A program made the translations under genes and the position numbers. A stretch of DNA of 64,000 nt from Escherichia phage vB_EcoM_PHB13: sequence record MK573636; one strand, 5' to 3'. Positions 1,617-20,398 of the stretch are shown piece after piece (positions within the stretch are counted from its first letter, which is position 1; the number at the start of each line of letters is the position of its first letter). The notes beneath the pieces are model-generated. The model had not been told where the DNA came from and searched no databases. It saw nothing but the letters and a program-made list of their open reading frames with translations.

Positions 1617-2078
1617 ATGATTAATGAGCTAATAGAAAACTATGGATTCGTTAAATATTCATGTTTAGAGTGTAAAGATGGTGATGTGATTCTACCGCCT
1701 CAGAAGAACCGTTTAAATGTTCTTTATGCTATTGTGGTTGATGATGAACTGGTATACATTGGTCAGACTGTCAATCTCAGAAAGCGGATCAATTATTACC
1801 GGACTAGCATTAACAGACAAACACCAACAGCGGATACTCGCAAGAGTAAGAATATTCATAAGGCGCTAGAGGAAGGGAAGACAGTAACATTCTATTACCG
1901 CCAGTGCTTTGAGTTATATATTGAGAATCCAACGGGTAAAGATATTATAAGCACTGCCGATATCGAAGAACCTGTTTTGATCACCAAATTTAAACCAGAA
2001 TGGAACACAAATTATGTCAACAAAAGAAAACAACAAAAAAGTTTTAGCATTGTTCAAAAATCTGATGGCACTATGTGA
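1617..2078 (+). CDS. denA: GIY-YIG nuclease resembling T4 endonuclease II
   Basis: Motif VLYAIVVDDELVYIGQTVNLRKRINYYRT matches the GIY-YIG core as I recall it in T4 DenA; sits immediately upstream of rnlA as in T4. Confidence 0.6.
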   Translation: MINELIENYGFVKYSCLECKDGDVILPPQKNRLNVLYAIVVDDELVYIGQTVNLRKRINYYRTSINRQTPTADTRKSKNIHKALEEGKTVTFYYRQCFELYIENPTGKDIISTADIEEPVLITKFKPEWNTNYVNKRKQQKSFSIVQKSDGTM

Positions 2079-3183
2079 CGGATCTGATACGTTCTATTAC
2101 AAAGATGAAATTACGGCGATGCAAACCCGTATGCGCATTTTTAGCTATCTGTACTTGAGCAAACCGGAAATGTGGAATAAACCAGATGCGTTAGAGTGTC
2201 GCGGGATCATGTTTGAAATTGACGATAAAGGTCGTCCGGTCCGCATCGCATCTCGTCCTATGGAGAAGTTTTTTAATTTGGGTGAGAATGATCGCGCTCG
2301 CTTTAAGCCGGAAGATGTGGAAATGGTCATGGACAAAATGGACGGTAGTCTAGTAAGCACATACATTGATAACGGCTATGTTCAGTTGAAGTCTAAAGCG
2401 GCCTTGTACTCAAGCCAGGCAGAGAGAGCAAACGGTCTTCTGTATTCAGAGAAGTATGCGGATCTACGAGCTAAGATCGCTGATATTGGGTCTGATTATA
2501 CTTTCAACTTTGAATATACAGCACCCAGCAACCGAATTGTTGTAGAATATTCTGAACCGTCGCTAACACTTCTGAATGTACGCCATAACGTCACAGGAGA
2601 ATACGTACCGCATCAAATGCTATTTGCTGACGCAATCCTACGTTCTCATCTGGTAAATGCGTTACAGGTTGATTCAGCGCGTTTTAGTAATATTCTTGAT
2701 GAAGTTCGGACCGCAGAAGGTATCGAAGGAATTGTTGCACGCACTAAAGACGGTCAAATGTTCAAGGTGAAGAGTGAATGGTATATTGGTGTGCATAACA
2801 TTAAAAACACATCGATGTTTCCTAATAACCTGATCTACTATGTCGTAGAAAGCGAAACCGATGATTTGCGTGCTGCATATGAAGGCGAACCGGAAGCACT
2901 GGAACGAATCGAGCTATTCGAGGAAGCATTCAGGTCTATTCTTCGCAATGCCTTCACGACAGCAACAGAATTTTATAACGCACACGCGGGAGAAGACAGA
3001 AAGACATATGCATCCAATGCGACTATCGAATCACGTAAACATGGTGACGCACAAGCATATATTTTCATGTGTCTGATGATTGCATTTGATGGTCTTGATT
3101 ATGACCGTATTCTGGCTTCAATGAAAACCTACTATCTACGGAATTATAAGAAACTGATTCCGGCTGATAAGATTGATTGGTAA
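2014..3183 (+). CDS. rnlA: RNA ligase 1
   Basis: N-terminal region (RIFSYLYLS..PDALECRGIMFEIDDKGRPVRIASRPMEKFFNL) resembles T4 gp63; KMDGSL nucleotidyltransferase lysine motif. The 5' end overlaps denA by 65 nt, so the true start may be downstream. Confidence 0.75.
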   Translation: MSTKENNKKVLALFKNLMALCDGSDTFYYKDEITAMQTRMRIFSYLYLSKPEMWNKPDALECRGIMFEIDDKGRPVRIASRPMEKFFNLGENDRARFKPEDVEMVMDKMDGSLVSTYIDNGYVQLKSKAALYSSQAERANGLLYSEKYADLRAKIADIGSDYTFNFEYTAPSNRIVVEYSEPSLTLLNVRHNVTGEYVPHQMLFADAILRSHLVNALQVDSARFSNILDEVRTAEGIEGIVARTKDGQMFKVKSEWYIGVHNIKNTSMFPNNLIYYVVESETDDLRAAYEGEPEALERIELFEEAFRSILRNAFTTATEFYNAHAGEDRKTYASNATIESRKHGDAQAYIFMCLMIAFDGLDYDRILASMKTYYLRNYKKLIPADKIDW

Positions 3184-3549: not shown

Positions 3550-3998
3550 GCATAGAAATATTGCCTACACAAGAGCAGATAAGCAATTTTAATCTGGTTG
3601 ATTATCTGTGGATAGGTGCAAGCATTATTATCCTGATGGTGTTTTCAATTTTCGTGATACACTGGATGTTTAAGAAAGCACATAAGAATTTTCAGACCGC
3701 CATAATCCATGTCTTCGCTGTGCCTATTGTATTTGCTCTTTCTTCGTGTACAATGGACCATTATTCACAGGAACCGAAATTACATCCTCCACTACCAGCA
3801 CCAATAGAAAAAGTTGACATTGACCTGAATGTGGATACAATAGACGGTAAGCCTAGAGTTTCTATGTCGTGGGAGGACTCCCAAAAATTTAGAGTCTGGT
3901 TGGCTGATATTAAGAGATATACACTTGAAAGTAAGTTGATCCTGTGTTATTATCGCAAAGAACTCAATGAGGAACGGTGTAAACCGAAGGAGAAATAA
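3546..3998 (+). CDS. hypothetical membrane protein
   Basis: Two hydrophobic segments; start overlaps upstream stop, stop overlaps pseT start (TAATG). Confidence 0.45.
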   Translation: MSIEILPTQEQISNFNLVDYLWIGASIIILMVFSIFVIHWMFKKAHKNFQTAIIHVFAVPIVFALSSCTMDHYSQEPKLHPPLPAPIEKVDIDLNVDTIDGKPRVSMSWEDSQKFRVWLADIKRYTLESKLILCYYRKELNEERCKPKEK

Positions 3999-4876
3999 TG
4001 CCGAAATGTGAAGTGATTTTAACCGTTGGTTGTTCTGGGTCCGGTAAAACTACATGGGCTATGGAAACGTGTAAACGGTTTAGTAATTATCGTAATGTGA
4101 ATCGTGATGATCTTCGTCTTATGTTGTTTGGTGTTGACTCACCTTTGAAATACAAATATACTAAGGAAAAGGAAAAGCTGGTAGAGTCTATTCAGAGAAT
4201 GATTGCTCGCGAGACTCTATCACGCGGATTAAGTATCATTATCTCTGATACTAACCTGAAAGAAAAACATCGTGTATTCTACAAAGAACTTGCAAAAGAA
4301 TTTAACGCGGTGTATACTGAACAAGTGTTCAATGAATCATTTGAGACACTAAAGAAACGTAATTTCTATCGCGGCGAGAAAGCAATTCCACTTTCTCATT
4401 TGCGCAACCAATTTTATCTGATGCAGGAATATATGGGTCAAGAAGTATACAATCCGAATACCATGCTGCCGAAGGCAGTGATCTTTGATATTGATGGAAC
4501 ATTAGCGGATAAGGGCGGTCGTCATCCGTTTGACTGGACAAAGGTCAAAGAAGATAAACCACGTCCGCAAGTGATCGAAATGCTTAAACTGTATCGTGAT
4601 AATGGCTATCGTATCATTACATGCTCAGGGCGTGAGGATGTTTGCGAAGAAGATACTCTGCAATGGTTGCGTGAACAGGGTATTGAACCGAGTGATCACT
4701 TTCAACGTGAAACTAATGATCGTCGTCCTGATCATGAAGTGAAGAAAGAGATTTTCTTCTCTGAAATTGCACCGCGTTATCATGTTGTGTTGGCAGTAGA
4801 TGATCGTGATCAAGTGGTTGACATGTACCGCTCAATTGGTGTAGAATGTTTTCAGGTTAACTACGGAGACTTTTAA
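3998..4876 (+). CDS. pseT: polynucleotide 5'-kinase / 3'-phosphatase
   Basis: P-loop GCSGSGKTT, HAD phosphatase motif VIFDIDGTLAD, C-terminus VDDRDQVVDMYRSIGVECFQV closely resembles T4 Pnk. Confidence 0.85.
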   Translation: MPKCEVILTVGCSGSGKTTWAMETCKRFSNYRNVNRDDLRLMLFGVDSPLKYKYTKEKEKLVESIQRMIARETLSRGLSIIISDTNLKEKHRVFYKELAKEFNAVYTEQVFNESFETLKKRNFYRGEKAIPLSHLRNQFYLMQEYMGQEVYNPNTMLPKAVIFDIDGTLADKGGRHPFDWTKVKEDKPRPQVIEMLKLYRDNGYRIITCSGREDVCEEDTLQWLREQGIEPSDHFQRETNDRRPDHEVKKEIFFSEIAPRYHVVLAVDDRDQVVDMYRSIGVECFQVNYGDF

Positions 4877-5100: not shown

Positions 5101-5607
5101 ATGTTGTCACAAACTTACATGCAGATCGCCTATCTAATCGCAAAGAACTCTAAATGCGTTTCGTGGAAGGTAGGCGCACTGATCGAAAAAGACGGGCGAA
5201 TCATTTCTACTGGATTTAACGGCACTCCAGCAGGGCAAGTAAATTGTATCTGTCATGCACATAAAAGCGGTTGGCTGGATGATGACGGCAAAATGATCTC
5301 AGAAAAACGACCAGAGCATAGTGCATGGTCACAGAAAAACGAGATCCACGCTGAATTAAATGCTATTTTGTTTGCTGCCCGTAGCGGTGTATCGATTGAA
5401 GGCGCTAGTATGTGGTGTACTGCTTCACCGTGTCCAGATTGCGCTAAAGCAATTGCAAACAGTGGAATTAAACATTTATACTATTGCGACACATATGATC
5501 GAAATGGTGGGCGTGATTGGGCTGATATTCTGAATAATGCAGATATTACGATCACGCGTATTCCAAAAGCATTATTGACTGATTTGAAGGGTATTGATAA
5601 TGACTGA
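5101..5607 (+). CDS. cd: dCMP deaminase
   Basis: Zinc-binding deaminase signature HAELNAI ... CTASPCPDCAKAI; position matches T4 cd. Confidence 0.8.
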   Translation: MLSQTYMQIAYLIAKNSKCVSWKVGALIEKDGRIISTGFNGTPAGQVNCICHAHKSGWLDDDGKMISEKRPEHSAWSQKNEIHAELNAILFAARSGVSIEGASMWCTASPCPDCAKAIANSGIKHLYYCDTYDRNGGRDWADILNNADITITRIPKALLTDLKGIDND

Positions 5608-5920
5608 ACAAGTTGATAATATCGCACTTCGTGAAGCACTAAAGAAAATGTTTTCGGTCGGTACTCACTCTTTGCAGTTTACTAAGAAAGATGGTACTGT
5701 CCGTGAGATGATCGCCACGCGAGATCCGGCACTGATGCCATTTGAAACATACGAAAAATGGTTAGTTCCTAATGTTGAAAAACCGCGTAAAGAATCAGAA
5801 ACATCTTTGCCAGTATATGAAATTGCAGTTGAAGGTTTCCGTAGTTTTGGGCTTGATAGTCTGATTAATGTAGACGGGCTGACTCCAGCGCAGATCGTCG
5901 AAATTTACGGTGGCAGTTGA
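5600..5920 (+). CDS. hypothetical protein
   Basis: ORF track start at 5594 is TTG; first ATG at 5600 overlaps cd stop. Confidence 0.4.
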   Translation: MTEQVDNIALREALKKMFSVGTHSLQFTKKDGTVREMIATRDPALMPFETYEKWLVPNVEKPRKESETSLPVYEIAVEGFRSFGLDSLINVDGLTPAQIVEIYGGS

Positions 5921-5922
5921 CA

Positions 5923-6534
5923 ATGGAAACAAAAGATGATAATATCGTATTACCAGCGCCGGAAGAATGGAGACAAGCTGTAGGTTATCCGTGGTATGAA
6001 ATCTCTAATTATGGTAGATTGAGATCTATTGACCGAAGTATCGAATTTTATAGAGAAGTTTCTCCCGGTAATATTAAGCTCGTAAAACAAAAACGTGCTG
6101 GTAAAATAATAAAACCAATTTTAGACCGATATGGATATTATTATTCAACATTGTCAAAACAAAAAGACAATGGTAAAATCTCAGTTAAAGCCGAAAAGAT
6201 ACATCGACTTGTAGCAAATGCATTTCTAGGAGACGTTACCGGACTTGAGGTTAATCACATCAATGGTGTAAAAACCTGCAATTATGTGTGGAATCTAGAA
6301 ATAGTAACCTTACTAGAAAATATGAGACATTCATTTAGAACTGGACTCAATAACAATGTCGGTGAAAACCACTCACGGGCAAAACTGACAAATGCGCAAG
6401 TCGAAGAAATAATGCGGCTTAAAGGAAAAGTTAAGAAGCAAATTATAGCTGATATGTTTAATGTTTCTTATTGTTGTATAGCGCAAATACATTCCGGTCT
6501 GCGGAGAAATCCAAAGGTCGCGAAATATAAATAA
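5923..6534 (+). CDS. HNH homing endonuclease, free-standing
   Basis: N-terminal WYEISNYGRLRSIDR (NUMOD4-like) and EVNHINGVKTCNYVWNLEIVTLLENMRH (HNH_3-like); ORF track start at 5917 is TTG, ATG at 5923. Confidence 0.7.
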   Translation: METKDDNIVLPAPEEWRQAVGYPWYEISNYGRLRSIDRSIEFYREVSPGNIKLVKQKRAGKIIKPILDRYGYYYSTLSKQKDNGKISVKAEKIHRLVANAFLGDVTGLEVNHINGVKTCNYVWNLEIVTLLENMRHSFRTGLNNNVGENHSRAKLTNAQVEEIMRLKGKVKKQIIADMFNVSYCCIAQIHSGLRRNPKVAKYK

Positions 6535-6570
6535 TTTACTATTGAGATGAATTGAAGAGGTAAGAAAATT

Positions 6571-6894
6571 ATGACCGTTAAAACTCCTAAAGCACTTGGT
6601 GACTATGTGATCATTGAAGCTAAAGCGGAAAGCGCAGGGACCGAAGTAAAGAGCGATTTTGGTATTATCATCGAGCAAAAACGAACTATGGGAGAGATTC
6701 CTTTAGTCGGTAAGATTATTGATATCGGTGATAACGTTGATAAAGAATTGCTGGGCAAGACTGTATTGCTTCCTCATGGGAAACTTAATAAAGTTCCTCA
6801 TCCAGACGTTATTAACGGCGTTAAGAAGGAAGAAGAGATCGACCTGAAATGGACTGTAACGCACAAACAGAATATTGTGGTAGTTTACGGTTAA
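6571..6894 (+). CDS. 31: co-chaperonin for GroEL (GroES analogue)
   Basis: 107 aa; LGDYVIIEAKAE and NKVPHPDVI resemble T4 gp31; position between cd and gene 30 as in T4. Confidence 0.7.
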   Translation: MTVKTPKALGDYVIIEAKAESAGTEVKSDFGIIIEQKRTMGEIPLVGKIIDIGDNVDKELLGKTVLLPHGKLNKVPHPDVINGVKKEEEIDLKWTVTHKQNIVVVYG

Positions 6895-6905
6895 TGATTT
6901 TAAAC

Positions 6906-6932
6906 GGCGGGAAATAATCCCGCCTATATTTT
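6906..6932 (+). terminator. rho-independent terminator
   Basis: GGCGGGAAATAATCCCGCC hairpin followed by TATATTTT. Confidence 0.55.
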
Positions 6933-6976
6933 GGCTATATGATTTTGTAAGTTATTGATTATTAAGGAATTTTATT

Positions 6977-7141
6977 ATGAAAACTATGAATGTAAACATC
7001 CACGAAATCCATACCGAAGTATTCACCGAAGAAGACCAGTTTGGTGTATGGGTAAATCCTCATTCGATTACTATCGATATTCCTAATGACGATTATGATC
7101 CGTTCTCTCTGATTAGCGAGATTAGTTTCAATGACTTCTGA
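6977..7141 (+). CDS. small hypothetical protein, about 54 aa, not in ORF track
   Basis: AAGGAA ribosome-binding site then ATG; stop overlaps the next gene start (ATGACTTCTGA). Confidence 0.35.
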   Translation: MKTMNVNIHEIHTEVFTEEDQFGVWVNPHSITIDIPNDDYDPFSLISEISFNDF

Positions 7142-7610
7142 AATTGATATCTATGCGGGTGGACCTTATCCATCGGGTGAATTGAGTAATTTCAATAAAA
7201 GACCATTCCGTCTATTTGGTTGCGATATTAACAGCACAGAAGGATTTTTACAGGGGCTAAGATTTAAGAACCCTCAGAGACAAAGAGAAATCTTTTTGAT
7301 GCATGGTGGCAAAGCAAAAAGAACCGGAAGAACTGAAAAGATTGAGAATCACATGTTATATTTTCAGGGTCGCCCGATTCATCGAATGAGTGAGCATTAT
7401 TACAAACTGGTACATCTGGCATTTGTTACGATGGCACGGAATAACCCAGAATTTTGTAAAGCATTACTCTCGACCGGAAATAAGAAATTACGTCATAGTA
7501 TAGGTGGAACTGATCCGTTAAAGACTATATTGACTGAATCGGAATTTTGTAGTATCCTCAATGATATTCGTGAACGTTTAACAAAACGAGGTGAAAATGT
7601 CAATTCTTAA
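7131..7610 (+). CDS. NADAR (YbiA-like) domain protein
   Basis: GELSNFNKRPFRLFGCDINSTEGFLQGLRF matches the NADAR signature (SNF ... PF ... S/T-E ... Q ... KF) as I recall it. Confidence 0.5.
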   Translation: MTSEIDIYAGGPYPSGELSNFNKRPFRLFGCDINSTEGFLQGLRFKNPQRQREIFLMHGGKAKRTGRTEKIENHMLYFQGRPIHRMSEHYYKLVHLAFVTMARNNPEFCKALLSTGNKKLRHSIGGTDPLKTILTESEFCSILNDIRERLTKRGENVNS

Positions 7611-9093
7611 TATCATTAATCAGCTTGCAGCAACAGACAAAACATCGCTGAAAGAAAAGATCCTGAAAGAATCTGCAAGCAATGAAACGCTGAAAGAATG
7701 CTTTTATCTGGCATATTGCAAACAGGTTACGTTTGGCGTAAAGAAATACGATAAACCATCGCGTTATTCGTCTGTATTGTCTTTATCCGGTGCATTACAG
7801 GTCTTTAAAAATAAACTTGCCACGCGTCAAGTAACTGGTAACGCAGCATTACAGCTAGTTACCGATACTCTGACTTGCTTGTCAGAAGATGATGCTAAAG
7901 TTGCAATGATGGTCCTGAATCGTGATCTGGAATGTGGTTGTTCCGCTACCACTGCAAACAAGGTATGGAAGAAACTGATCCCCCAGCAACCGTGTCACCT
8001 TGCATCGTCATGTTCTGATAAGACTATTGCTAATATCAAGTATCCGGCGTATGCACAACTTAAAAGCGATGGCGCTCGTGGTATGGCTGATATTGACGGG
8101 GAAACATTAGCAATCTATACCCGTTCAGGTAATACCTATCAGGGACTTGATGATTTGTTTGCGGTTTTAGAGCGTCTACGAGGCCGTGGAATTGTTCTAG
8201 ATGGCGAATTGGTATATATGCCTACCCTTTCGCAAACACCAGCGCAGAACTTCGTTGAGAGCATTTATGATGGTACTCTGTCATGGATATTTGAAGAAGA
8301 GGAAATGCCATTAACGCCAGTAGCGGAAGCAGTAAAAGAATCCGTTGTTGCAGATCGTCAGACCGGAAATGGTATCCTCAACAAATCACTGAAAGGAACT
8401 ATTCCAAAAGAAGAAGCCCAATGTATTGTTTACACTGTCTGGGATGTTATCGACCGTGATGTGTATTACGGAAACGAGAAAGCAACGAAGCAATATAAAG
8501 ATCGATTCGAAGAACTAAAACAGATTGTTGAAGAACTTAACGATCCTCGTGTTCAGATAATCGAAAACACTGTAGTTAACAATATAGATGAAGCTCGCGA
8601 AGTATATCATCGCTATGTAAACATGGGCTTAGAAGGTATTATCCTTAAAAATTTACATGGTGTATTTGAAGATCGTCGCAGTAAAGATCAGGTTAAATTT
8701 AAAGAAGTGATTGACTTCGACGCGGAAATTGTTGATGTATATCCGCATAGTAAAGACCCTAATAAGGTAGGCGGTTTTACTGTCCGTAGTGCGTGCGGAC
8801 GAATGATGACTAACACCGGATCGGGATTGACTGACACCACAACCGAAAAAGGTGATGATGGTATTGAACGTGTAATTCCGTTCGATCGTCGAAATGAACT
8901 CGACCGAGAAATGTTATGGGCTGACCGTCATAACCTGATTGGAAAAGTCATTGAGATGACATGCAACGGGTATATCCGCAGCAAATCACGTAAAGAAGAT
9001 GAACCGGAGTTCTCTTTATTTCTCCCGATCATCAAACGTATTCGCTACGACAAGACCACTGCAAATACAGTAAAAGAGGTATTCGATGTGTGA
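7597..9093 (+). CDS. 30: ATP-dependent DNA ligase
   Basis: Active-site motif KYPAYAQLKSDGARG (KxDG); about 498 aa; C-terminus FSLFLPIIKRIRYDKTTANTVKEVF resembles T4 ligase; ORF track start 7591 is GTG, ATG with GAGGTG site at 7597. Confidence 0.85.
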   Translation: MSILNIINQLAATDKTSLKEKILKESASNETLKECFYLAYCKQVTFGVKKYDKPSRYSSVLSLSGALQVFKNKLATRQVTGNAALQLVTDTLTCLSEDDAKVAMMVLNRDLECGCSATTANKVWKKLIPQQPCHLASSCSDKTIANIKYPAYAQLKSDGARGMADIDGETLAIYTRSGNTYQGLDDLFAVLERLRGRGIVLDGELVYMPTLSQTPAQNFVESIYDGTLSWIFEEEEMPLTPVAEAVKESVVADRQTGNGILNKSLKGTIPKEEAQCIVYTVWDVIDRDVYYGNEKATKQYKDRFEELKQIVEELNDPRVQIIENTVVNNIDEAREVYHRYVNMGLEGIILKNLHGVFEDRRSKDQVKFKEVIDFDAEIVDVYPHSKDPNKVGGFTVRSACGRMMTNTGSGLTDTTTEKGDDGIERVIPFDRRNELDREMLWADRHNLIGKVIEMTCNGYIRSKSRKEDEPEFSLFLPIIKRIRYDKTTANTVKEVFDV

Positions 9094-9559
9094 TAATGAA
9101 GGGGCGAAAGCCCCTAAACCTAAAAAATTGTCAAAGAAAGAGCAACGCCAGATCCTGAAAATGAAATATGGTGGACGTTGTGCCTATTGTGGCGAGGAAC
9201 TAGGGGATCGCTGGCACGCAGACCACATCAAACCAGTATTGCGACGCTCAAAGGTAGTCTATGATGAAAATGGACGAATTGCCCGTAATGATGATGGATC
9301 GTGGAAGTATAAGGTTGTAGGAATGCATAAACCGGAACATGATATACTTGATAACATGAATCCGGCGTGTGTGCAATGCAATCTTTATAAAAGCTGTATG
9401 GGCTTAGAATACTGGCGTAAGTTTATACGCGAGAACTTCCAGAAGTACATTCAGCGAAATATGGGGTTGCGAGCGGCTAAACGCTTTGGCTTGCTGTCAA
9501 TTCATGACCAGCCAGTAGAATTTTATTTCGAAAAGTACGAGCGCGAAAATAAGGAGTAA
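9086..9559 (+). CDS. HNH nuclease
   Basis: CAYCGEE...HADHIKPV...NMNPACVQCNLYK: CxxC, H-x-DH, N, CxxC-N-x-x-K HNH core. Confidence 0.65.
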   Translation: MCDNEGAKAPKPKKLSKKEQRQILKMKYGGRCAYCGEELGDRWHADHIKPVLRRSKVVYDENGRIARNDDGSWKYKVVGMHKPEHDILDNMNPACVQCNLYKSCMGLEYWRKFIRENFQKYIQRNMGLRAAKRFGLLSIHDQPVEFYFEKYERENKE

Positions 9560-9566
9560 CCATTAT

Positions 9567-9911
9567 ATGTTCTTTATGTTTATCTATATCCTTTTTGTTT
9601 TCCTGGTAGGCATGTACGCAAGCCGTTTAAACCGTAGCGTTATCGGTTATGTTCTCCTATCTTTGATCATTAGCCCGTTGATCACCTTTATCATTTTGTT
9701 GGTGTTGGGTCCAACTAAATCATATGAACAGGAACAAGCAGACAAGCTAAAAGCAGAGATGGTAGAGAAACAATTTGTTCAACTGTATCTAGAAAACCCA
9801 GAGTTTGAGGAAGTTTCCACCCTTAAGCGAATGTATGACGATCTAACACGATACCCTAACTATCGAAATGTGCTGGCTATGGAAGAAGCCATTAAGCTCA
9901 TGAAAAAATAA
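9567..9911 (+). CDS. hypothetical membrane protein
   Basis: AAGGAG site; two predicted transmembrane helices in first 50 residues. Confidence 0.5.
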   Translation: MFFMFIYILFVFLVGMYASRLNRSVIGYVLLSLIISPLITFIILLVLGPTKSYEQEQADKLKAEMVEKQFVQLYLENPEFEEVSTLKRMYDDLTRYPNYRNVLAMEEAIKLMKK

Positions 9912-16241: not shown

Positions 16242-16570
16242 TGGGATTGTTTAAGTATTCGCTAACGTCAAATTACGATAAACAAGGTCATTGCATCAGT
16301 TGCCCTGATTGTCGTAGCCATAACATCGAAAGCAAGATCACCGATCATATTGATGGACTTTGGTCGCCAGCAAGCGAGATAGAATACTATTGCGCTGATT
16401 GTGGAATTGTAGTAGCATATTGGGCATACGGATCATATGATCCTTACTTCCAGATGGGAGAGCGTTCAATCCCTGCTCTTATCTGGAGAATTAAGAACAA
16501 TATCCGCCATTCATGGGATGAGTTCTTAAAAGATATTGATTTACGTGATGATCCATTCAGGAGACTATAA
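16238..16570 (+). CDS. zinc-ribbon protein
   Basis: CISCPDC ... CADCG (two CxxC pairs); start overlaps upstream stop. Confidence 0.4.
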   Translation: MMGLFKYSLTSNYDKQGHCISCPDCRSHNIESKITDHIDGLWSPASEIEYYCADCGIVVAYWAYGSYDPYFQMGERSIPALIWRIKNNIRHSWDEFLKDIDLRDDPFRRL

Positions 16571-16571
16571 C

Positions 16572-17090
16572 ATGAACCGTTTGACGCCTAAACGCCGTTA
16601 CTATACCAATACTAAAAACTTTGTCATCTCTGTTTATGAGGCGTGGTTAGAAGATGGCTATATCAACATGAACCCAGATTACCAGCGTCCTTTGGTATGG
16701 GACACCGAAAACAAACGTATGTTTATCGAAAACCTGATTAATGATTTTCCGGTTGGTGCTATCGCAATGGCTAAGATTGATGATGGCTCTCGCTATGAGA
16801 TCGAAATCGTGGACGGTAAACAGCGTTTAAACGCAATATTCTCCTTTATGAAAGATGAGTTTAGCATTGCTGGTAATGATGATTCTATGTTGTATTACAG
16901 TGATTTTACGCCAGCAGAAAAGCGACGTTTTCGCAATCTCGGACTACCCGCGATCATGATGGAAGAGAGCACACGAGAAGATCGATTAGAATATTTCTAC
17001 AAAACAAACTTTTTCGGTGTGCCTCAATCAGAAGATCATCGCCAGCATGTGATTGCATTATTGCAAGATGAGCAATTAAAAAATAACTAA
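16572..17090 (+). CDS. DUF262 / ParB-like nuclease-superfamily domain protein
   Basis: NPDYQRPLVWD ... EIVDGKQRLNAI (YQR-W and DGxQR motifs); ORF track start 16536 trimmed to ATG 16572 with AGGAG site. Confidence 0.6.
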   Translation: MNRLTPKRRYYTNTKNFVISVYEAWLEDGYINMNPDYQRPLVWDTENKRMFIENLINDFPVGAIAMAKIDDGSRYEIEIVDGKQRLNAIFSFMKDEFSIAGNDDSMLYYSDFTPAEKRRFRNLGLPAIMMEESTREDRLEYFYKTNFFGVPQSEDHRQHVIALLQDEQLKNN

Positions 17091-19573: not shown

Positions 19574-20398
19574 ATGTTCAAGAAATTACAGGATTTTCGT
19601 CTTTCAGAAGAATCACGCGAATCAATGATGGAACGTATGGATAATTACATCGAAACATATGACATTGAGGGGATTAATGGTTACATGATCACTGAGATGA
19701 TCAGCGATCAGATTAACTTTGATGATTATGTGAAGGTTATCCGCTTCCTTGAGCGTGAGACACAAGATTATGGATTTGTCAAGAAAATCATTAATGTGAT
19801 GTATGAAGTACACTCCGAAGACTTTGGAGATAATGTATTCAAACATTACAAACATAACAACATAACCCCAGCAGAATATAATGCAATCTGTGATTATGTG
19901 TCTGAACAATACGAATGGGTAAATGGTGCTCTCTTAGGGGAAGAAGACATGACCGATGAGATATCAGAGATTGTTGATTTGATGGATTGCGCCATGGATA
20001 AAACCGAAAAGTTAAACGGTACTCTTTATCGCGGTCAACATCTTGACATTCAGACAATAGAGCGTATTATTGAAGATAAGGAATTTACCTTTAAAAACTT
20101 TGTGTCAACCAGCATGACACCGATCATCTTTGGAGGCTGGCTATCAAACAGCACTAGCCTTTATTGTGAGAATCGATATGAATCCATGACCGGAAAGATG
20201 CAACATTCTTGTAATGTATCGTGGGTAATTGACGTAAAAGATCATAAAGGTTTTGTTGTTGGGTCAATTGCATGGAATCCTTGCGAATGTGAAGTAATTT
20301 TACCGCGCGGGACTTGCGTCAAGGTAAACGACGTAGTAGAATCTTTCGGTGATGAGAATCGTAGACAATTTACAATTTTCGGTGAGGTGACTAAATGA
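19574..20398 (+). CDS. ADP-ribosyltransferase, short Alt paralog
   Basis: 274 aa; LYRGQ / FVSTSMTPIIFGGW / CECEVILPRG parallel the Alt catalytic motifs. Confidence 0.6.
   Translation: MFKKLQDFRLSEESRESMMERMDNYIETYDIEGINGYMITEMISDQINFDDYVKVIRFLERETQDYGFVKKIINVMYEVHSEDFGDNVFKHYKHNNITPAEYNAICDYVSEQYEWVNGALLGEEDMTDEISEIVDLMDCAMDKTEKLNGTLYRGQHLDIQTIERIIEDKEFTFKNFVSTSMTPIIFGGWLSNSTSLYCENRYESMTGKMQHSCNVSWVIDVKDHKGFVVGSIAWNPCECEVILPRGTCVKVNDVVESFGDENRRQFTIFGEVTK

Follow-up and report, generated by a model that had tools for sequence, protein, structure and literature searches.

The 159-aa protein encoded directly upstream of DNA ligase in Escherichia phage vB_EcoM_PHB13 (sequence record MK573636) is best read as the Krischvirus ortholog of AdfN (gp30.3) of phage T4, an enzyme that would strip DarT1-made ADP-ribose from guanines of phage DNA and allow replication in DarTG1 hosts. 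By analogy with the T4 protein, a probability of roughly 0.78 is attached to this reading. The window, that is, the whole stretch of DNA analysed, is 64,000 nucleotides long. Within it the evidence comprises family membership, a NADAR fold, conserved Glu and His residues, an intact C-terminal helix, purifying selection and gene layout. Family, fold, reaction and biological role are already published for the T4 ortholog; the sequence-only reading, which recognised a NADAR-like protein from a motif, missed that the gene belongs to the already named gp30.3/AdfN family. The gene can now be named as an AdfN/gp30.3-type NADAR and a candidate anti-DarTG1 factor.

The window belongs to a Krischvirus (RB49-like, Straboviridae) phage of E. 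coli, placed outside Tevenvirinae in current taxonomy; its region 6500-9600 shares 99.0% identity with Escherichia phage vB_EcoM_G37-3 and 95-99% with another 58 records. The gene was reported with the correct boundaries, length and motif in the sequence-only reading: the ORF listing with its translation contains ELSNFNKRPFRLFGCDINSTEGFLQGLRF exactly as quoted, and phage KFS-EC, 98.7% identical, has a RefSeq CDS with the same start and stop. That CDS is labelled 'hypothetical protein', as is the gene in all close relatives seen. The features of the region are collected in Table 1.

Table 1. Coordinates of adfN, its predicted functional residues and other features of the window
Feature	Position	Strand	Basis or remark
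adfN / gene 30.3 ortholog, 159-aa single-domain phage NADAR (gp30.3 family)	7131..7610	+	ATG ORF, ORF listing
Glu37, codon GAA	7239..7241	+	aligned with catalytic E36 of T4 AdfN and Glu of the YbiA/NADAR 'SEH'
Arg44, codon AGA	7260..7262	+	at the phosphate-coordinating Lys (T4 K43, E. coli C7 NADAR K95)
His122, codon CAT	7494..7496	+	last-strand His of phage (gp30.3) NADARs; Glu in YbiA, Asp in DarG1
C-terminal alpha-helix, residues 136-152	7536..7586	+	AF2 model; element lost in the defective RB69 allele
Shine-Dalgarno-like site, GAGGTG	7589..7594		just 5' of the ligase ATG
Overlap of adfN 3' end and ligase 5' end, 14 nt	7597..7610	+	sequence; adfN TAA stop at 7608-7610
Gene 30 ortholog, ATP-dependent DNA ligase	7597..9093	+	PF01068, E 2.8e-22; phrog_114, E 1.3e-141
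54-aa ORF (phrog_15277), first gene 3' of the terminator-like hairpin	6977..7141	+	annotated in KFS-EC, present in L007
Terminator-like GC hairpin and T-run after gene 31	6906..6924	+	putative, pattern scan only
Cpn10-like gene (gene-31 co-chaperonin)	6571..6894
NUMOD4+HNH_3 gene, homing-endonuclease-like	5917..6534	+
HNH gene (phrog_2118), homing-endonuclease-like	9086..9559	+
RNA ligase 1 (RnlA), polynucleotide kinase/phosphatase (PseT), dCMP deaminase	2014..3183, 3998..4876, 5101..5607	+	T4-like order
184-aa ORF, GmrSD N-terminal domain	16536..17090	+	PF03235, E 5e-20
Alt-like ADP-ribosyltransferase, 683 aa	17444..19495	+	PF03496
274-aa ADP-ribosyltransferase	19574..20398	+	PF03496

Profile matches place the 159-aa protein clearly within the phage gp30.3 family. 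Its match to the Pfam family 'Bacteriophage protein GP30.3' (PF08010) spans profile positions 2-138 of 138 and scores 130.6 bits (E 4.6e-38) where 36 is the cut-off; phrog_652 is matched with E 2e-44. The protein aligns end to end with T4 gp30.3 (BLASTP E 6e-30), which was counted in favour of the AdfN reading, but at only 38% identity to this tested protein, a value that was counted against it. By tblastn the family is present in 1509 phage records, in 1502 of them near full length, and these are nearly all Straboviridae-type myoviruses of Escherichia, Klebsiella, Aeromonas, Acinetobacter, Vibrio and others. For the census of the family, 1.8 billion cluster representatives were searched exhaustively, with 969 relatives returned at E <= 1e-3; a word-indexed homolog search gave 7 proteins only, too few for this purpose. 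Some metagenomic relatives are long. Two of them (P0012 and P0013) consist of tandem double gp30.3 domains, and others (P0047, P0065, P0059 and P0146) carry LRR_5 (BspA-type), calcineurin-like phosphoesterase, alpha/beta hydrolase or LGT fusions. These fusions are a mixed set without a consistent functional message, and some may be gene-call artefacts.

The protein is also a member of the NADAR superfamily, in which the gp30.3 proteins are a distinct subfamily. The earlier assignment to NADAR by motif is confirmed, though not by the Pfam NADAR model itself. The direct match to that model, PF08719, stays below threshold (15.9 bits against a gathering score of 35.1, E 0.016) and was counted against the AdfN reading; the refuting condition set in the sequence-only reading, lack of a significant NADAR profile match, therefore called for closer scrutiny. 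Pfam treats gp30.3 as a family of its own, separate from PF08719. The NCBIfam NADAR anti-phage model is likewise sub-threshold (14.5 against 240 bits) and was disregarded. A phmmer search of the PDB sequences with the protein alone retrieved no NADAR; its best match, DltA (E 0.0019), was judged spurious. What upholds the assignment is the family as a whole and its structure. YbiA (2b3w) is recovered from the PDB sequences (E 3e-4) by a profile built from 80 members of the family, and when this profile is set against E. coli YbiA with hhalign the probability is 95.8% (E 7e-9, 135 columns). The AF2 model, made from a 7-sequence alignment with a mean pLDDT of 88.7 and a pTM of 0.83, has the predicted three-dimensional fold of YbiA/NADAR, and a structural fold search also recovers the NADAR link.

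Residues of the presumptive active site were counted over 161 aligned family rows and followed through alignments to T4 AdfN and YbiA; hhalign places E37, R44 and H122 opposite Glu, Lys and the last-strand Glu of YbiA. Position 37 is Glu in 155 of the 161 rows and invariant in one alignment (A3). The next position, where G38 corresponds to G37 of T4 and to the His of YbiA, is Gly in 138 of 161. The sequence-only reading had treated 'STEG rather than EH' as a possible defect that left activity uncertain. This concern is unfounded, because EG is the norm of the family and is present in the enzymatically active T4 AdfN, which also has Gly after Glu (LEGFLQG). His occupies position 122 in 154 of 161 rows, the LRHSI of the window protein aligning with KHSI of T4, and the protein carries both the catalytic Glu and the last-strand His of its family. 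It is a core-only domain with no extension: the alignment reaches the T4 C-terminus, the predicted C-terminal helix is intact, and its TILTExEF motif is conserved across family rows. The last-strand His is the residue by which 'phage NADARs (gp30.3 proteins)' were defined, as against Glu in YbiA and Asp in DarG1 (PMC11125620, PMC11543638, PMC12945103).

The function of T4 gp30.3 has been established in detail, and gene 30.3 was renamed adfN, for anti-DarT factor NADAR (Johannesman et al., Nat Commun 2025, PMC11825919). In that work DarTG1 resistance was mapped to 30.3 with RB69 × T2/T4 chimeras, deletion of 30.3 left T4 and T2 without plaques on DarTG1 cells, expression of T4 AdfN rescued RB69 from DarTG1, and purified T4 AdfN stripped ADP-ribose from DarT1-modified DNA in vitro (PMC11825919). 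T4 AdfN is necessary and sufficient for DarTG1 resistance; it does not counter DarTG2, and it is impaired by E36A and K43A (PMC11825919). In a transposon screen (HIDEN-SEQ 2025) adfN likewise proved conditionally essential on DarTG1 hosts. Independent work by other groups established that T4 gp30.3 hydrolyses guanine-ADPr in vitro and does not rescue uninfected cells from DarT1 (PMC11125620, PMC12945103). The full activity of T4 AdfN only in T-even infection implies an additional helper factor (PMC11825919). The need of T4 AdfN for a T-even factor, together with the position of Krischvirus outside Tevenvirinae, was counted against the AdfN reading. Since T4 AdfN needs an additional phage factor, small co-translated neighbours such as the 54-aa ORF are candidates for that role. 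The T4 construct in Toxins 2024 (PMC11125620) is given as 'gp30.3; residues 1-208', whereas the T4 gp30.3 CDS has 152 aa.

For the window protein, the substrate, the anti-DarTG1 role and the part of each residue are modelled on the T4 ortholog and on NADAR biochemistry. In E. coli carrying DarTG1, DarT1 would ADP-ribosylate the N2 of guanine in phage DNA and block replication. In binding ADP-ribose, the phage enzyme would place Glu37 and His122 about the distal ribose and Arg44 at the diphosphate, and hydrolysis of the ribose-guanine bond would release ADP-ribose and restore the base with no strand break, after which phage replication could resume. The proposal in the sequence-only reading of a phage NADAR that reverses guanine ADP-ribosylation of the DarT type is borne out to this extent: the characterised T4 ortholog does so, and the window protein, with the same family and fold, may be expected to act alike. 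A search of the accessible literature found no paper linking Krischvirus and DarTG, which was counted against the AdfN reading. The AdfN reading predicts that RB49-like phages resist defence of the DarTG1 type, and phages of this kind are used in phage-therapy cocktails.

One residue departs from the pattern and had been overlooked. At the position of the phosphate-coordinating Lys the window protein has Arg44, where Lys is found in 144 and Arg in 11 of the 161 rows (Arg about 7%). On this count Arg44 is a real deviation from the family, and a conservative change, Lys and Arg being chemically similar. It is shared with a 67%-identical metagenomic relative (P0002), and Arg recurs in several other lineages that keep Glu and His, which argues that evolution tolerates it. 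The corresponding K95R mutant of the E. coli C7 NADAR was active in hydrolysis in vitro but left cells unprotected from DarT1 in vivo (Schuller et al. 2023, PMC11543638); because of this failure, full in vivo potency of the window allele cannot be assumed. The value of the allele is as a natural Lys-to-Arg variant, at a catalytic-site position with a published mutant phenotype, from which the effect of this residue on potency in vivo and on specificity could be learnt.

The substitution also opens the main alternative, in which the same NADAR fold and chemistry serve a target shifted via Arg44, with little or no protection against E. coli C7 DarTG1. Candidate targets would be RNA guanosine-ADPr, the product of another DarT1-like or pierisin-like toxin, products of the phage Alt/Mod-type ADP-ribosyltransferases (ARTs), or soluble ADP-ribose derivatives. 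Besides the K-to-R change at the phosphate-binding position and the separation of in vitro hydrolysis from in vivo DarT1 rescue by K95R in C7 NADAR (PMC11543638), such a shift would fit the observation that NADARs also hydrolyse RNA G-ADPr and, in some cases, C-ADPr (PMC12945103). It would fit, too, the argument of Iyer and Aravind that low-molecular-weight ADPr derivatives may be the main substrates of phage NADARs and that these are co-expressed with phage ARTs; two ART genes do occur on the strand of adfN, about 10 kb downstream. However, the only family member that has been tested hydrolyses G-ADPr in DNA and determines resistance to DarTG1, and a summary table lists the T4 NADAR as guanosine-only, with C-ADPr assigned only to the NADAR and YbiA families (PMC12945103). 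All other conserved positions are retained in the window protein, and the Lys/Arg similarity and the recurrence of Arg in otherwise intact lineages weigh on the same side. A shifted target is accordingly judged unlikely. It is similarly doubtful that the Krischvirus allele has been retuned to another adduct, DarT variant or partner, or has become independent of the T-even helper, an idea suggested by the fixation of Arg in the clade, the loss of T4-type neighbours and the uncoupling of a bacterial NADAR by K-to-R. If true, the allele would be a natural specificity variant, useful for dissecting the limits on AdfN function.

The integrity of the gene argues in favour of a working AdfN. Against the 67%-identical relative L007, in a comparison where synonymous sites are near saturation (dS about 1.8), dN/dS is 0.12 for adfN, equal to the 0.117 of the adjacent ligase, and points to purifying selection on adfN; for the 54-aa ORF dN/dS is about 0.15 against the same relative. 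All 59 close Krischvirus records have adfN at full length. A naturally defective allele is known from RB69, where 30.3 is frameshifted and lacks the C-terminal helix, a truncation that lowers activity (PMC11825919). With that precedent, and with the conserved Lys replaced by Arg44, the gene of the window might be taken for a dead or decaying remnant, kept only because it carries the ribosome-binding site of the ligase. The full-length ORF with its intact C-terminal helix, the retention of E37 and H122, the low dN/dS across the whole gene and the conservation of full length among the Krischvirus records all oppose this, and a decaying remnant is unlikely, indeed to a degree that gives it very little weight.

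Comparison with known systems places the window protein closest to T4 AdfN, with which it shares the Pfam and PHROG families, the minimal core-only NADAR fold, the S-x-E-G-F-L-Q motif, the last-strand His, the C-terminal helix and a neighbourhood between gene 31 and gene 30. The two differ in several respects: T4 has Lys43 in place of Arg44; the window protein is longer by 9 C-terminal residues; its gene, owing to the absence of 30.2 and 30.1, overlaps the ligase directly; the small ORF that overlaps it upstream belongs to phrog_15277 and is unrelated to T4 30.4 (phrog 2042), which holds the same position; and the gene resides in a Krischvirus, outside Tevenvirinae. DarG1 proteins (G. lovleyi 8BAT and E. 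coli C7 NADAR; PMC11543638) possess an N-terminal extension and a last-strand Asp and are encoded beside their toxin, whereas the window protein has no extension, has His, and is an orphan in a lytic phage, its neighbours being the 54-aa ORF and the ligase rather than a DarT1 gene. E. coli YbiA (2B3W) and the Phytophthora NADAR (8BAU), of Pfam PF08719, differ from it in having 'EH' and a last-strand Glu instead of 'EG' and His; its own PF08719 score is sub-threshold. YbiA is an N-glycosidase in the detoxification of riboflavin intermediates and gives no protection from DarT1 in vivo. T5-like and Vequintavirinae phages also encode orphan NADARs that neutralise DarTG1, AdfN-Bas32 and AdfN-Bas60, but they belong to other NADAR clades, independently acquired and not of the gp30.3 type; both function without phage infection (PMC11825919).

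The junction with the ligase gene, which the sequence-only reading had described, is confirmed as a 14-nt overlap by the sequence and by the annotation of KFS-EC, in which the ligase begins at the ATG that lies at 7597 of the window. The ligase is 41% identical to that of T4. The overlap and a GAGG are also kept in L007. Upstream, the stop of the 54-aa ORF overlaps the adfN start by 11 nt, and downstream the HNH endonuclease gene overlaps the ligase end by 8 nt on the same strand, and adfN would be co-transcribed in this tightly overlapping block of 54-aa ORF, adfN, ligase and HNH. The hairpin after gene 31 is likely the upstream boundary of the block; a promoter scan remained at background level (9 found, 10.4 expected). 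Translational coupling of adfN and ligase, as predicted from the overlap, is plausible and nothing special.

The order of these genes varies among relatives. In T4 it is 31 - rIII - 30.9...30.4 - 30.3 - 30.2 - 30.1 - 30; in RB16, 30.3 and 30 are separated by four genes, among them 30.2 and a homing endonuclease, and in Acinetobacter phage PhT2 by 30.2. In Aeromonas phage 25, 30.3 is embedded in a tRNA cluster; several hypothetical genes come next, then nrd genes, and the 3.5 kb examined to each side contain no ligase. When T4 proteins of the region were searched against the window by tblastn, only 30.3 and 30 matched; homologs of 30.1, 30.2, 30.4-30.9 and rIII were not found, in a search that missed gene 31 too and is thus insensitive for fast-evolving small genes. 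That the neighbouring T4 genes 30.1, 30.2 and 30.4-30.9 went undetected in the window was counted against the AdfN reading. From these gene orders, the contact of adfN with the ligase is ancestral synteny condensed through the absence of 30.2 and 30.1.

This bears on the suggestion that a NADAR directly upstream of ligase fits a repair-type counter-defence. In its full form the two proteins would be a repair cassette: the NADAR step would create or expose a lesion or nick that the coupled ligase seals, and the overlap would keep AdfN and ligase in matched quantities. As such a cassette would have it, both enzymes work on DNA, and a 67%-identical relative retains the 14-nt overlap. The chemistry speaks otherwise, as NADAR hydrolysis leaves base and backbone intact (PMC11543638, PMC12945103). 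No ligation step is needed, because this hydrolysis is a direct reversal of the modification. The adjacency itself is not kept, with one to four other genes between 30.3 and 30 in T4, RB16 and PhT2 and no ligase in the 3.5 kb to either side in Aeromonas phage 25; stop/start overlaps are the rule in the block of the window and in T4, and the ligase has a Shine-Dalgarno-like site of its own. The repair-type link to the ligase is therefore not supported, and a repair cassette is highly improbable.

Several other genes of the window are of related interest. The block formed by gene 31, adfN and ligase is flanked by two homing-endonuclease-like genes of the HNH type (Table 1), and the NUMOD4+HNH_3 gene is missing from L007, which fits mobile insertions in a hyperplastic region. 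Further upstream, genes for RnlA, PseT and dCMP deaminase follow in T4-like order. RNA ligase 1 and PseT are the classic counter-defence pair of tRNA repair, and the pair is located in the same early region as adfN. The two ART genes downstream of adfN encode an Alt-like protein and a smaller enzyme, and the phage, which writes ADP-ribosylation on proteins, probably also erases it from DNA. In T4 and in Acinetobacter phage PhT2 alt is near the ligase, with one small ORF between. Upstream of the Alt-like gene, the match of the 184-aa ORF to GmrSD restriction endonucleases is confined to their N-terminal (DUF262/ParB-like) domain; such a stand-alone domain is odd for a lytic phage and might serve against type IV restriction, as a decoy or inhibitor, or else as a nucleotide-binding factor.
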